From an uncultured bacterium (GTDB taxonomy: Bacteria; Acidobacteriota; Thermoanaerobaculia; Multivoradales; JAHZIX01): DNA of 64,000 bases. Positions 2,251 through 7,086 of the stretch are shown piece by piece (the stretch's first letter is position 1; each line of letters starts with the position of its first letter). The notes under the pieces are model-generated. The model was given only the letters and a program-made list of their open reading frames with translations, ran no database searches and was not told the DNA's origin. The translations under genes and the position numbers were made by a program. Where the stretch lies: the NCBI GenBank assembly GCA_965368975.1, contig CBDUPA010000008.1:160001-224000 (forward strand), written 5' to 3'.

Positions 2251-2592
2251 CGGGAGCCTAGGACGCTTTGTTGAGTAGGGTGTGAAATCGGATGATACTT
2301 GGTGATATTAGCCCAGGCGAATCGAAGGTAGGGTAAGTAGATCGATGCTGTGTTTACGTTCACATTAAAGCGCGATGATGTGGGCGGCTAGCTGGAGAAG
2401 AGGTCTTAGCGATTGTAGTTCTGTTAATAGCATTCCTCCATTTCTCATGGTGGTAGTTTAGTACTAAAAGCAGCATGGGGAGCGGACCGTTCGTAGCAAC
2501 GTCTCGAACGTCAGTCCCTAGGCAGTTAACCTCTCTTGAGGGTGGCCCAATGGATCTTTCCCGGCTGAGGCCAGGACAGCCGTATGGTCGTG

Positions 2593-2601
2593 TGTTAGAA
2601 T
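2593..2601 (+). promoter_or_regulatory. Extended -10 element for tRNA-Phe
   Basis: TGtTAGAAT about 20 nt upstream of the tRNA. Confidence 0.4.
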
Positions 2602-2621
2602 CACATTCAGAATGATTCTTA

Positions 2622-2697
2622 GCCCAGGTAGCTCAGGTGGTAGAGCACCTGACTGAAAATCAGGGTGTCGGCGGTTCAACTCCGCCCCTGGGCACCA
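2622..2697 (+). tRNA. tRNA-Phe (GAA)
   Basis: 76 nt; acceptor stem GCCCAGG/CCTGGGC, anticodon arm CCTGA-CTGAAAA-TCAGG, T-loop GGTTCAACTCC, encoded CCA. Confidence 0.97.
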
Positions 2698-2775
2698 GCT
2701 TTATTCTGGGAAGTGCTTCATGCCGAAAAGGGGTCGTACGACCTAATAACCGCCAGCGCGAATGGAGTTTATTGA

Positions 2776-5154
2776 GTGCATAAGGCGATGCGTTATATCG
2801 ATAGAGTTGCCTCGGCGGAGGTTCCTCGGAGATTCCGTGATGTCCATCTATTGATCGGAGGTACAGGTGCGGTAGGTGGTGAGACTCTCATCAAGATGTT
2901 GCGAGTCTATGCGGACATGGCTCGCTATCATGGGCTCCATCCTGAAGAGCAGGGCGGCCCAGTCCTTGTGGCGACCGGTAGAGCAAAGGATAGTGCTGGC
3001 AATCCTCTCCCGGAACTGAAACGTTTCCGGAGACGCCTTGGAACTCTGGCTCAAGCTGAGTTTGGTGCATCGATATCCAGACAGGGAGATACCATAAGAA
3101 TGCCAACTGGTGCACTCGTCGTGCTCCTGGATTTCAACTTTCGAATCTTGGGCAACTTGTCGAAGGCAATTCGGCACGGTGATGAGCCCTTGGAGCAGTA
3201 CCTGGCTCATCGGAAGCAAGACGAGGGTTCTCTAGTACATGGACTCCGAGCCGACATCCGGCAAGAGGCACCTTGGATGGACCTTCTGCACACGGTGAGA
3301 AAAGTTTTGGATGGTTGGTCTTTCGAGAAGTTCCGTTCGGTTCAGATCGGTATACCTATCCCGAGCCTTTTAGCTTATCACGTGGATGCTATTGAATACC
3401 TTCTGGCCCGGGACTTGATCACTGAGCAGGATGGAGCCGACCTAAAGTCAGAAGTCCGGCGCCAATTAGTCGAGCAATTATCGAAGGTTCGAGGTGAAGC
3501 TGAAGCGGTAATCGTTGCTCACACAACGGCTGTAGGTGGTATGTATGATGTGACTCAGCAAGGAGATAAGCGGATCCGTCTCGGGTTTGCCCACGCCGCA
3601 CGAGATGAGCATCTCCAAGAGAAGCACCAGCAAGCTCAGGACATCTCATCCCTCTATGCCGAAGCTGGTATCTGGAATCTAGTTACGGCAGCAGCTATTG
3701 GAATTGATGATGTCCGCGTAGACAAGCCGTTAGCGATGGCGCAGGCGATGCGGCGAGCCCTAGGGCTTGCAGATGCAGAACCTTTCCCCGCGGCTAAGCA
3801 GGCCCGCTATCTTCACATCTATCCTCCTGCCAGACTTACGCTGACTTCGCACGGCAGTCAGATTCGACTACGATTCGACCGGATGTCGCGAGGGCGCGAG
3901 TTTAGACCAAGCTTGGCGCTGCGGAGCGGAGAGAATGGATACTTGTCACCAGCAAATGCTGAAGCATTATATAGAGTGATGAGGGTGGCATCTCCGAGTG
4001 AACTTGGTGCTGTTCTGGCGGTGGTAGGGAGCCTAGGGGATGATCCTGTGTTTCCGTGGTTTAGGTCCGACGAGATTTCCGGCTCGGCGAGTTGTTATTA
4101 CAGGGAAAGTGATAATTCAAGATTCGTTTTCGATTTTCTCGCTCAACCGCACGTTCGTTCCTTGCAACTGACCGGAATGGAGCCGCAGGCGCTTGTCGAC
4201 CTTGGTTCTGCTAAGCATCAAGCTGAACTTCATACTCTTGGATTGCTGATTCTGCTACATCGCCTGAGAACTCTCGACTTGGATGCGATTCCTTCATTGA
4301 TTTCACCAGACAAATTCGACCCCATTTCTTTCTTTGAAGAGAAATCCCGACCATTGTTGTTTGAAGATGTTCAGGGTTGGGATATAGAGAGATTGGCGGA
4401 GGATCTCAGGATTCTGGTGCTGACCGACGCACCAGCGGACTTGACCGCTCTCAAAGACTTTCGAGCTAGAGAACAAGAACGCTTAGCTCCAAAGCGTGTA
4501 AAGGTCCGAGATATTTTGTTTGAAGCAATCATTAACTCCGTTCGTGCTGTTACCTCTCTCGGTTCTCCAATCGTCCTTGAAGATCCTGCTGGAAGTGCGT
4601 TTGTTCGCTGTGGCTGGTGGATTGGCCCACTATCAATTATTGCTGAAACTGAAGATTCGATCAGATCGTGGTTTCAGCGTCGTGTGGAGCAACTGAAAGT
4701 AGAAGGAAACGAAGTTCTCTACGAGGAAGTGATGGCACATCATTTTGCGGTCAATGGCTTCATAGACCTTAGACCGCACGGTATTGTCGCTTGTTCGCGG
4801 GATGATCGGGGAGCTAGAGATAACGTTCGAAGCACCAAAGACGCACGGGAGTTCCGTAGACTGGTGAATAACTTTTTACCTTATCAGGCTTTCTCGACTT
4901 GCGGTCTGCTGGCGGTGCTTGAGCGGCTTAAGGGTTTGGCAGACTACTTGCAGATGGCTCAGCTGAAGCTCGGGACGCACTTCGATAGCGCTTGGTCGAT
5001 GCCTCGAGATAAGCATGGTCATGCCTTAGTTGTTCCTGGAATCGTGGAGGCATTCCGTATGGTATCTGAGGGTCTGGAGAAGTCTACGGGGACAGAAATG
5101 CTTGATGGCTATTGGGGGTACCATTCGTTGGGTAGGTACCCGAAGAATGGTTAG
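2776..5154 (+). CDS. Large hypothetical protein with an N-terminal Rossmann-like motif
   Basis: 792-aa ORF; HLLIGGTGAVGG glycine-rich loop after a beta strand; GGAG upstream of the GTG. Confidence 0.75.
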   Translation: MHKAMRYIDRVASAEVPRRFRDVHLLIGGTGAVGGETLIKMLRVYADMARYHGLHPEEQGGPVLVATGRAKDSAGNPLPELKRFRRRLGTLAQAEFGASISRQGDTIRMPTGALVVLLDFNFRILGNLSKAIRHGDEPLEQYLAHRKQDEGSLVHGLRADIRQEAPWMDLLHTVRKVLDGWSFEKFRSVQIGIPIPSLLAYHVDAIEYLLARDLITEQDGADLKSEVRRQLVEQLSKVRGEAEAVIVAHTTAVGGMYDVTQQGDKRIRLGFAHAARDEHLQEKHQQAQDISSLYAEAGIWNLVTAAAIGIDDVRVDKPLAMAQAMRRALGLADAEPFPAAKQARYLHIYPPARLTLTSHGSQIRLRFDRMSRGREFRPSLALRSGENGYLSPANAEALYRVMRVASPSELGAVLAVVGSLGDDPVFPWFRSDEISGSASCYYRESDNSRFVFDFLAQPHVRSLQLTGMEPQALVDLGSAKHQAELHTLGLLILLHRLRTLDLDAIPSLISPDKFDPISFFEEKSRPLLFEDVQGWDIERLAEDLRILVLTDAPADLTALKDFRAREQERLAPKRVKVRDILFEAIINSVRAVTSLGSPIVLEDPAGSAFVRCGWWIGPLSIIAETEDSIRSWFQRRVEQLKVEGNEVLYEEVMAHHFAVNGFIDLRPHGIVACSRDDRGARDNVRSTKDAREFRRLVNNFLPYQAFSTCGLLAVLERLKGLADYLQMAQLKLGTHFDSAWSMPRDKHGHALVVPGIVEAFRMVSEGLEKSTGTEMLDGYWGYHSLGRYPKNG

Positions 5155-5328
5155 AAGGACATTCTCAGTACTTTCTGGCGAGACCTGCGAGGGCCAGTAG
5201 TAATCGAGGGAGTGATATGGTAGGATTAAGAGAATGCTTTGCGAGCTGTGCCGCTCGTTCAATGATTTAATGCCTTGCTGTTGCCCGGAGATGATGGCCT
5301 TGGTCTGTTAAAGGAAATTGAGGTAATT

Positions 5329-6174
5329 ATGTCTAAAGAAAGAGCATGGAAAGAGCGAGCTGATAATGTGCCCGCAGTCCTGATGGTGATTGCAGCTGCT
5401 GCCGCATTAGTGTATCAATTATTTGAGAAGACAGGTTGGTTGCCCGTGTTTGGACAGCCAATTGATGTCCTACTATTCCTGGTTGCCTTGCTTACAGCTG
5501 CAACTGGCCTCCAGAAGATCTTCCATCTTCAGTATATAAGTGATTCAATTGAAAATATTGAATCCAACTCGCGCAATGCTTCAAGTGAGGCTGCATCGAG
5601 TCGTGAGAATATCCTAAGAGCATTGGAAAAAATTGAAGGGCTCGAAGAGAAGCTAGTATCAGATGTTAAAAAAATTACACATGCTGAGATATTGCTTGAC
5701 AAGCAGAGGATTGAGGATGCCGCCATAGAAATTATTAAAAACTGTGCCAACTCAGATAATATTAAGGCGACGGCTCAATACTTGGCGCCTTCGACCGGGG
5801 CTGGTTCTGGCGGCCTCTCAGAAAGATACTACCGGGCTATTGCAAAGAAGATTTCACTCGCCCAACAGGCAGGAGTTGAGATGATTTACAAAGTGATACT
5901 GCCTGCATCGCCGCAAGATAGGCGTGAGTCTGCAGTTGGAAAAAGGAAAGATATTTTTGAGCAATTTAATGTATCCGATAAGATGAATATAAGATTTTCA
6001 AATGTCAGCTGGCCGATTGAAATTCTCATTGCTGGAGAATGTATGATTTTAGCATTTTCGGGTCGGGACGGGTTGAAATATAATGTGGGTCTGCGAGTTT
6101 CTGATTCGAAATTTATAGAGCACATGAGGGATTGGTACCTAGAGACGGCTTGGAATGACGCGTCCAGCGAGTAG
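5329..6174 (+). CDS. Hypothetical membrane protein (2 TM, coiled coil, alpha/beta C-terminal domain)
   Basis: GAGGT RBS before ATG 5329; two hydrophobic segments, a heptad-rich linker, and a C-terminal region ending in FIEHMRDWYLETAW. Confidence 0.75.
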   Translation: MSKERAWKERADNVPAVLMVIAAAAALVYQLFEKTGWLPVFGQPIDVLLFLVALLTAATGLQKIFHLQYISDSIENIESNSRNASSEAASSRENILRALEKIEGLEEKLVSDVKKITHAEILLDKQRIEDAAIEIIKNCANSDNIKATAQYLAPSTGAGSGGLSERYYRAIAKKISLAQQAGVEMIYKVILPASPQDRRESAVGKRKDIFEQFNVSDKMNIRFSNVSWPIEILIAGECMILAFSGRDGLKYNVGLRVSDSKFIEHMRDWYLETAWNDASSE

Positions 6175-6228
6175 GTATGCAGGTTTACAAGCGGCAGGCA
6201 GGAGCTGTCTCTGTCTGTACCGGACTAT

Positions 6229-7086
6229 TCAGTTCCGTGGCCACCGTGGAAAGAATGTGCTCGTTTTCTGGATGTACTTCCTGTACGCCGGCCGACGCTC
6301 TCCAATGTCTTTCTCTAGCATCGAGACGCCGGAGACCTTGAGTAGGAACAGGGACATGACGATCGGGCTGAGGATTGTCTGCCAGCCTCCAGGGGTACCG
6401 CAGGCGATGAGGAAGAAGCCCCACCAGACGCAGAAGTCACCGAAGTAGTTGGGGTGGCGGGTGTAGCGCCAGAGGCCGGTGTCGAGAACTTGACCCTTGT
6501 TCGCCGGATCGGCCTTGAAACGTGCCAGTTGCCAGTCGCCAACGGTTTCGAAGAACAGGCCGACGGCGAACAGGGCGATGCCGGCCCAATCTAGCCAGTC
6601 GAGGGCCAGCCAGTCCAGGGCTAGCCAGCCCGGCTCTATTCCTGCTGCGTTCTGCTGGCCGAACTGCAGCGGGAACGATATGAACCACAACAGGACGGCC
6701 TGGAACCAGAAGATCACGAAGAGAGACTTCCACTGGAAGCTCTTGCCGCGTTTGGCGCGCATGCGCGCGTAGCGGTAGTCCTCCTCGTTTTCCTTCAGGT
6801 TGCGCCACAGCAGGTAGCCGCCCAAGCGCAGGCCCCAAACGACCGGCAGGACGAGCAGGAGCAGGCGCCGCGCTGGAAGCTCGTCTTCGAAGCCTCCGAG
6901 ATAGAAGAAGCTGACGCTGGCGACGAGGACGAAGCCGAGGCCCCAGAAGGGGTCGACGATCGAGACGTCGGTGCGCACCAGGCTGACCAGCCAGACCAGG
7001 GTCATCATGCCCAGGATGGCGGCCAGGGTGGTCAGCAGGAGGGTAGTGGTCGGATTGAAGGTAACGGCGGTGAGGTAGCTGAGCAT
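6229..7086 (-). CDS. DUF1295 / steroid 5-alpha-reductase-like membrane protein
   Basis: SIVDPFWG, EDYRY and GLWRYTRHPNYFGD motifs; multiple TM segments. Confidence 0.88.
   Translation of the reverse strand: MLSYLTAVTFNPTTTLLLTTLAAILGMMTLVWLVSLVRTDVSIVDPFWGLGFVLVASVSFFYLGGFEDELPARRLLLLVLPVVWGLRLGGYLLWRNLKENEEDYRYARMRAKRGKSFQWKSLFVIFWFQAVLLWFISFPLQFGQQNAAGIEPGWLALDWLALDWLDWAGIALFAVGLFFETVGDWQLARFKADPANKGQVLDTGLWRYTRHPNYFGDFCVWWGFFLIACGTPGGWQTILSPIVMSLFLLKVSGVSMLEKDIGERRPAYRKYIQKTSTFFPRWPRN

Follow-up and report, generated by a model that had tools for sequence, protein, structure and literature searches.

We analysed a 64,000-nucleotide stretch of contig CBDUPA010000008.1 (positions 160,001 to 224,000 of the forward strand, assembly GCA_965368975.1; hereafter the window) from an uncultured Thermoanaerobaculia bacterium of the Acidobacteriota. 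Near its start lies a low-GC islet that holds a tRNA-Phe and two open reading frames (ORFs), ORF1 and ORF2. A preliminary description, made from the sequence alone, had taken the pair for a candidate defence or accessory system, and had missed a recurrent link that our comparisons brought out, to phenylalanine decoding through tRNA-Phe, variant or archaeal-type phenylalanyl-tRNA synthetase (PheRS) and AlaX. The cassette is real and apparently undescribed, with good comparative support from few loci.

A low-GC islet with a second tRNA-Phe

A fit with two change points delimited a block with a GC content of 0.498, against 0.664 outside it (coordinates in Table 1); the whole-genome value of the host (G000) is 0.654. 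The islet of the preliminary description is thus a real compositional block, but the shift starts at ~2265, before tRNA-Phe and not after it, and the term AT-rich holds only relative to the host, with 52% GC in ORF1 and 44% in ORF2. GC at third codon positions (GC3) was 0.49 in ORF1 and 0.42 in ORF2. The host median was 0.82 across 501 called genes on four contigs (a set that took in the window's own contig, C8, including ORF1 and ORF2 themselves), and 2/501 genes had a GC3 of 0.49 or lower. The islet is foreign by composition and was probably acquired horizontally.

The tRNA-Phe lies ~350 bp inside the low-GC block and is identical at 75 of 76 nucleotides to the other genomic tRNA-Phe, which is embedded in host-like sequence on contig C26. 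Among 41 genomes, G000 was the only one with two full-length tRNA-Phe matches (≥84% identity); anticodons of the matches were checked at 29 other loci. No duplicate of the tRNA 3' end was detected nearby, terminal or att repeats of the islet were not found, and no integrase ORF lies within 2265-6380. Because the tRNA-Phe sits inside the block, is a second copy and comes without att repeat or integrase, it is likely cargo rather than a landing site, and the idea that its 3' end had served as an insertion hotspot is not supported.

Composition is our sole guide to which of the two copies is ancestral. Neither of them sits at the purH-side position found in three same-family relatives, and an empty-site comparison gave nothing to align, the left-flank gene being without a match in five same-family genomes. 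Across nine loci, an Rfam scan returned only tRNAs above cut-off. A promoter-like site just 5' of the tRNA is a consensus match only, and sigma-70-like sites in the region numbered two against 4.1 expected by chance. An ORF for a small, secreted, Cys-rich protein and another of 1039 aa lie in a second low-GC patch (0.56-0.58), 22 kb to the left of the islet (G000:C8:137457-140965).

ORF1, with a predicted atypical short-chain dehydrogenase/reductase fold

ORF1 and ORF2 had no Pfam, NCBIfam or PADLOC match that reached a family cut-off or a meaningful E-value. This agrees with the preliminary description of two co-oriented genes (both on the forward strand) without a recognisable family, and the PADLOC check that it proposed for a defence assignment was negative for both proteins. 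The ORF1 family comprised 708 homologues (of 7996 scored candidates), nearly all of them unnamed. The structure model of ORF1, built from 119 sequences, had a pLDDT of 88.9 and a pTM of 0.91. For residues ~7-442 the best fold matches were all of the short-chain dehydrogenase/reductase (SDR) type (Z 13.7, root-mean-square deviation [rmsd] 3.7, 233 aligned residues; many tied), and Foldseek matched SDR-type proteins with an E-value of 6e-4. Searches with the whole of ORF1 were likewise dominated by SDRs, the matched part being the N-terminal domain. At the sequence level, the best E-value of the ORF1 profile against PDB sequences was 0.73, the ESM Atlas gave no usable match, and hhalign comparisons with host SDRs aligned the glycine-rich strand only.

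The GxxGxxG feature of the SDR superfamily is present after strand 1, as GGTGAVGG at residues 24-31, where G24, G25, T26, G27, A28, V29 and G31 are invariant in 119 rows. Further invariant or near-invariant positions include HTT-VGGM (245-252), H269, K279 and RSGENG (379-384). The catalytic YxxxK is absent: K279 is invariant, but at position 275 the family has H, Y, F, Q, K, R or A, and it is H269 that is invariant instead. By secondary structure, we read K279 as the probable counterpart of the SDR Lys. Compared with known SDRs (MalC, AerF, YwfH, GalE), ORF1 shares the Rossmann core and the glycine-rich motif and has a Lys on the helix that follows strand 5, but it is only ~10% identical, three times as long and without a Pfam SDR match, and it carries a large conserved C-terminal region. 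The near-invariant motifs of that region are LGS-KHQ-E-H, GFIDLR and PG-VE--R---EG-EK-TG; Cys436 is also invariant in the family. Our model predicts ORF1 to be an NAD(P)-dependent oxidoreductase-like, dinucleotide-binding protein, in line with the enzyme-like protein of 792 aa (counted from the alternative start codon) proposed earlier.

The ORF1 family was present in 46/401 genomes of the class (a tally that takes in the unpublished G563) and in none of five same-family genomes. It was not detected in viral contigs and plasmids, and a single-protein scan of metagenome contigs gave no confirmed homologue. The host itself encodes a 798-aa paralogue 17 kb to the left of the window (G000:C8:143591-145987) with normal codon use (GC3 0.80). 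This paralogue belongs to a distant subfamily shared with family f6, and several of its motifs differ from those of ORF1, for example THQ for KHQ and GK for EK, with CYY kept in frame.

ORF2, a predicted membrane-anchored ligand sensor

The ORF2 model (pLDDT 86.9) comprises two N-terminal helices, a long helix (coiled coil) that extends to residue 116, and a globular domain, which is the architecture that had been read from the sequence in the preliminary description. In a library clustered at 50% we found 62 homologues, and two transmembrane (TM) segments were present in 37 of the 47 that were aligned. The globular domain (residues 116-281) matched TrmBL2 (Z 15.2, rmsd 2.8, 140 aligned residues), the TrmB sugar-binding domain (Z 14.4), and the phospholipase D (PLD)-fold nucleases NucT (Z 14.9, rmsd 2.5, 136 aligned) and Nuc (Z 13.5); Foldseek matched the TrmB-type effector-binding fold with an E-value of 3.6e-9. 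Weak TrmB and FilR1_middle Pfam matches were seen in two homologues. With this domain, the ESM Atlas returned only unnamed clusters at 0.90, and leads to DUF6879 and DUF5919 stayed below 0.9.

Although ORF2 shares its predicted fold (Z 14-15) with TrmB/TrmBL2 and with the HKD nucleases Nuc, NucT and Zucchini, it has neither the helix-turn-helix (HTH) of the former nor the HKD residues of the latter. The HxKxxxxD motif is missing, with no HxK anywhere in the sequence; in place of an N-terminal HTH, for which there was no family match, two hydrophobic helices and a coiled coil form the anchor. Conserved residues (of 47 sequences) are T148 (45), R206 (44), F210 (46), W228 (40), E/D231 (44) and W269 (47). 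In our reading of the model, W228-P-x-E/D231 would lie on the strand that matches the HKD position, and such a pairing of acidic and aromatic side chains would be suited to an aromatic ligand that bears an amine.

The TM part is swapped in 4/53 scanned homologues, for TIR (P0135, P0175), an NDT-like domain (P0161) or a deaminase (P0183), and two further TIR fusions were found at other loci (L105 and L147). No HTH fusion was detected among the 53. TIR, NDT-like, deaminase and 2TM domains are typical conflict or killing outputs. The build of ORF2 is that of a ligand sensor whose output lies in the membrane. We predict from the model a membrane-anchored sensor with a non-catalytic TrmB/PLD-fold domain; the earlier idea of an enzyme coupled to a membrane effector is supported to this extent. 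Named members of the ORF2 family come from Thermoanaerobaculia, Chloroflexota and Nanoarchaeota. Its profile matched 2/401 genomes of the phylum, 5/401 of the class (one a weak TM-only match) and 1/124 of family f14, and gave no match in viral contigs.

Association of ORF1 and ORF2 with phenylalanine decoding genes

Twelve ORF2-family loci were available with their DNA, namely the window, eight loci from a profile scan of metagenomes and three from genomes (L096, L145, L147). ORF1 is present in 5/12, the window, L104, L105, L106 (where the contig ends inside ORF1) and L107, so that the co-occurrence check proposed in the preliminary description is positive at four other loci. The order is ORF1 then ORF2 in the window and ORF2 then ORF1 in L104, L106 and L107, and in L105 the two genes converge, separated by a tRNA-Phe and a gene for a 625-aa protein. 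Phe machinery occurs in 6/12 loci. Besides the tRNA-Phe of the window, L104 carries an archaeal-type pheS-pheT with a pyridoxal phosphate (PLP) decarboxylase adjoining, and L105 a tRNA-Phe and a variant pheS-pheT. In L107 a variant pheS directly follows ORF1, and the contig edge holds a canonical pheS that is broken; in L108 and L111 the end of a variant pheT directly precedes ORF2. The broken gene of L107 (L107:1-148, reverse strand) is an internal fragment with no intact 5' part and may mark replacement of the native gene.

By comparison, pheS, pheT, tRNA-Phe or ORF2 matches were found in 0/87 ORF1-only control loci (1.17 Mb of flank). All were fetched by ORF1, 80 of them in one set and the other seven drawn from related genomes and from the host's paralogue; 50 had ≥3 kb on both sides, and none of the linked loci was included. 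Phe-linked ORF1s occupy three tree positions: a long-stem clade (window, L106, L107 and a further genome, G628), a Pyrinomonadaceae-side position (L104) and a separate third one (L105). A single clade of Phe-linked ORF1s with their nearest unplaced kin was rejected (approximately unbiased test, p-AU 1.2e-5, 30 rows; the group was chosen after the first tree was seen). L108, L111 and G628 are close relatives, with a near-identical pheT end and a cinA neighbour, and were counted as one event. ORF1 is present in 3/4 ORF2-positive genomes of the class (counting G000, and with kin that are not independent) versus 46/401 overall. Archaeal-type pheS was detected in 0/166 genomes, in a search that had no positive control.

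The 625-aa protein of L105 (L105:9126-11003, reverse strand) has N-terminal hydrophobic helices, is in line with ORF1 and tRNA-Phe, and has no family match; it looks TrmB-like by eye and gave no alignment with the ORF2 profile. In L109, a 342-aa protein cut at the contig end (L109:1070-2098, reverse strand) is convergent with a TIR-fused ORF2 homologue and has weak ACT-domain matches (E 0.018), which suggest amino-acid sensing. The TIR-fused ORF2 homologue of L147 (L147:6198-11466, G625:C853) lies near a radical SAM gene and a ParA/MinD-like ATPase that matches PADLOC PDC-M28B (E 2.5e-25).

Variant PheRS in related genomes

Searched independently of ORF1 and ORF2, variant pheS was found in 1/124 genomes (G628; the tally takes in the unpublished G560, G563 and G839) and in 1/151 genomes (G713). 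In an alignment with Thermus thermophilus PheS, whose residue roles we apply here, the variant keeps the motif-2 and motif-3 Arg, the Gln/Glu and the FPFVEP loop. The pocket floor is changed from GFAFG to GFYINIG or GFYVNVG and from LGGAG to MPGGP, or from LGCG to MPGG, and is bulkier than the canonical one. A conserved Ala at this site helps to set specificity for Phe over Tyr (PMC7373986).

In G628, a genome estimated as 100% complete, variant pheS begins at the stop codon of ORF1, either overlapping or directly adjoining it, and pheT comes next. This gene is the only PF01409 match there, with canonical pheS not found, and two congeners have a canonical pheS and no ORF1 match. Since it is the sole pheS match and the congeners are canonical, the G628 variant probably charges Phe. 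In G713 the variant pheS is a second copy within an integrase-flanked cluster that looks like one for a non-proteinogenic amino acid (Table 1). The 599-aa Rossmann protein of that cluster carries ten motifs, picked by eye, that are colinear with invariant motifs of ORF1; it scored z 7.3 against the ORF1 profile, a value reached by 0/300 shuffles, 0/64 host proteins and 0/25 SDRs.

A further variant pheS-pheT (L150:9992-11596) borders the end of a viral contig that also carries genes for phage replication. It is 65% identical to the L105 enzyme and probably represents host flank. Separately, L155 (G625:C733) encodes a further non-canonical PheS type (ILGSGMIHP, GIAFGIGTTRI), placed after lysS rather than rplT, and 34/35 genomes of genus g276 fall in the same low PheS score band, a lone ORF1 homologue being common there.

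Table 1 Features of the islet and of two related PheRS loci (window positions unless a locus is named)
Feature	Location	Strand	Remarks
Low-GC islet	2265..6380	.	GC 0.50 vs 0.66; sharp on the left, uncertain on the right (~6200-6380)
Sigma-70-like promoter match	2573..2601	+	Extended -10 (TG-n-TAGAAT)
tRNA-Phe(GAA)	2622-2697	+	Sole tRNA of the window; second copy in genome
ORF1	2788..5154	+	788 aa from ATG 2788 (database record); alternative GTG 2776 gives 792 aa
ORF1 predicted SDR-type Rossmann domain with inserts	2806..4113	+	Residues ~7-442
ORF1 C-terminal region	4120..5151	+	Residues ~445-788; mostly helical
ORF2	5329..6174	+	281 aa from ATG 5329; GAGG motif upstream, like a ribosome-binding site
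ORF2 two predicted TM helices	5368..5523	+	Hydrophobic segments, residues ~14-32 and 47-65
ORF2 predicted TrmB effector-binding / minimal PLD fold	5674..6171	+	Residues 116-281
ORF1 homologue, variant pheS and pheT operon	L169:910-6658 = G628:C82:22910-28658		G628
Cupin, class-V aminotransferase, 317-aa protein, AlaX, 599-aa Rossmann protein, AlaX, pheS, pheT cluster	L183:4183-13653 (G713:C4)		G713

Proposed mechanism and alternative explanations

With a probability that we put at roughly 0.4, the islet may be a three-part module linked to Phe decoding, with ORF1 as the source of a Phe-like ligand, ORF2 as its sensor, and the spare tRNA or PheRS as a shield for translation. ORF1, as an NAD(P)-dependent enzyme, would make a phenylalanine-like or phenylalanine-derived small molecule; the catalytically dead TrmB/PLD-fold domain of ORF2 would bind that molecule and relay this to the pair of helices in the membrane. 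The spare tRNA-Phe would keep Phe codons readable while the molecule is present, and in relatives the protective part would be a variant or archaeal-type PheRS, sometimes with AlaX, that replaces the extra tRNA or stands beside it. Such self-protection would parallel the self-immunity synthetases of organisms that produce synthetase inhibitors (PMC7916415). The output would be to halt growth or kill the cell during a conflict, phage infection for instance. We infer the identity of the ligand, its synthesis rather than destruction by ORF1, its binding by ORF2 and the growth-arrest or death output. An amino-acid-like molecule that threatens Phe decoding is indicated by AlaX editing and the remodelled pocket, together with the aminotransferase and the decarboxylase; the roles of maker and reader are assigned to ORF1 and ORF2 because the other outputs of the ORF2 domain are conflict effectors, none of them DNA-binding. 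It is possible, if doubtful, that such modules form a new class of bacterial immune or conflict systems based on an amino-acid-mimic second messenger, with an SDR-fold synthase of a Phe-derived ligand, an undescribed family of TrmB/PLD-fold receptors, effectors of the membrane, TIR, NDT-like or deaminase type, and their own tRNA-Phe or remodelled PheRS (in one genome the replacement of the canonical enzyme) to keep Phe codons translatable in the host.

A number of observations weigh against this interpretation. The linked loci are small in number, and some of them are kin. ORF2 clearly stands without ORF1 or Phe genes in L145 and L147, L096, L109 and L110 (on contigs of 1-3 kb) also lack both, and genome G667 has ORF2 with no ORF1 match. 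The ligand for a lone ORF2 may come from an ORF1 that the host itself encodes, an idea with which G667 is at odds. Conversely, ORF2 matches were found in 0/50 ORF1-carrying genomes. The defence-island enrichment that the preliminary description had proposed to look for was not seen: most ORF1 homologues stand alone, resemble host genes and keep the same neighbours within a lineage, none of them related to defence, and no known defence genes adjoin the islet in the window. As ORF1 is mostly alone and the host has a paralogue, the usual job of the family therefore needs no sensor or spare tRNA. Redox catalysis by ORF1 is not certain because the SDR catalytic Tyr is absent. No ORF2 was found near the variant pheS of G628 and G713, no sensor-effector gene was recognisable in G713, and no ORF1 match occurred in the 10 kb upstream of the L150 variant pheS. 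The link between the 599-aa protein and ORF1 was not significant by hhalign (probability 6-13%). Finally, the same gene set would fit detoxification equally well.

Under that alternative, which we regard as somewhat unlikely, the module would confer resistance to an outside Phe mimic: ORF1 would destroy a toxic amino acid, PheRS, AlaX and tRNA would exclude it, and ORF2 would only sense it. The G713 cluster, with its aminotransferase, cupin, two AlaX and variant PheRS, and the PLP decarboxylase beside pheST in L104 speak for such a role, as do the bulkier pocket, the failure to find canonical pheS in G628 and its apparent breakage at the L107 edge; protection from canavanine by CtdA (bioRxiv 10.1101/2025.05.04.652006) offers a precedent. 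However, the near-host tRNA and canonical PheRS of the window would not exclude a mimic, and the fusions of the ORF2 domain to TIR, NDT-like, deaminase and 2TM parts, never to HTH among the 53 scanned, fit conflict signalling better than the regulation of genes.

It is improbable, in our view, that ORF1 acts on Phe-tRNA(Phe) itself, for example as an aminoacyl-tRNA reductase for which glutamyl-tRNA reductase is the model, with the extra tRNA or PheRS restoring supply. tRNA-Phe is indeed common to all the protective forms (tRNA, archaeal-type PheRS and variant PheRS), the window adds a tRNA only, and the features of ORF1 include the invariant Cys436 as well as its sizeable additional C-terminal region; but supply alone needs no remodelled pocket or AlaX, Cys436 lies on a strand aligned with the last SDR strand and may be structural, and searches with the whole of ORF1 matched no RNA-binding fold. 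Another scheme, indirect Phe-tRNA synthesis in which the variant PheRS would load a precursor on tRNA-Phe for conversion by ORF1 on the tRNA, seems far-fetched to us. The single operon of ORF1 and the sole pheS of G628 and the remodelled pocket speak for it, as does G000 (99% complete), where no prephenate dehydratase (PF00800) match was found although the enzyme is present in 2/2 same-family genomes tested. The archaeal-type PheS of L104 has an ordinary pocket, however, the window has no extra PheRS, and G628 has two prephenate dehydratase matches. ORF1 was also considered as a stand-in for prephenate dehydratase and rejected, since the enzyme is missing in 7/28 ORF1-positive and 7/32 ORF1-negative genomes, which shows no complementarity.

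That each gene also occurs alone, at few loci and with several of these from one lineage, would be expected of an ordinary accessory islet, with two unrelated genes at a tRNA and a Phe link that reflects the insertion site or one old event. We consider this decidedly improbable. Unlike in a tRNA-integrated genomic island, the tRNA here is a surplus copy that sits within the low-GC block and not at its border, with no duplicated 3' end, att repeat or integrase; moreover, three ORF1 clades meet three different Phe elements, and AlaX is not an insertion target.

Comparison with known systems

Thoeris, CBASS and Pycsar are immune systems that pair a signal synthase with a receptor-effector, the enzymes being of the TIR, CD-NTase or cyclase type. 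The proposed module would resemble them in architecture only, with an enzyme beside a ligand-binding domain that has interchangeable 2TM, TIR, NDT-like or deaminase effectors. It differs in its SDR-type Rossmann enzyme, in a sensor of TrmB/PLD fold rather than SAVED, STING, Macro or SLOG, and in carrying tRNA-Phe or PheRS. ORF1 had no TIR, CD-NTase or cyclase match in Pfam, NCBIfam and PADLOC, where its C-terminal region was not searched alone.

Two other settings share the translational part. Producers of synthetase inhibitors carry self-immunity synthetase genes (PMC7916415), and a non-native synthetase likewise stands with small-molecule enzymes in L104, L105, L107, G628 and G713. These clusters differ from ours, which have no recognised biosynthetic core and include a membrane sensor. 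In the window a tRNA is the only added part and takes the place of a synthetase, and the host has a single canonical pheS. Our literature search found no PheRS cluster of the self-immunity type. In the case of the deacylase CtdA, which protects against canavanine, the preprint (bioRxiv 10.1101/2025.05.04.652006) likewise sets translation quality-control genes against a non-proteinogenic amino acid, and AlaX in G713 is comparable. The amino acid and the enzyme fold are different, however, and no sensor-effector protein figures in the CtdA system as described there. A search of full-text literature, covering main texts only and subscription journals poorly, found no description of the module.

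Significance

Through the association described here, an unnamed enzyme family of 700 members and an unnamed sensor domain whose effectors are exchangeable gain a first lead to their function. It also brings to light a naturally occurring PheRS in which the pocket for the amino acid has been rebuilt. In one complete genome this variant provides the sole pheS match, and it bears directly on studies of how synthetases achieve specificity. If ORF1 makes a ligand that ORF2 senses, the signalling or toxin chemistry would derive from an amino-acid mimic and not from a nucleotide; if the genes serve detoxification instead, they would point to an unknown natural Phe antimetabolite together with a route of resistance to it.

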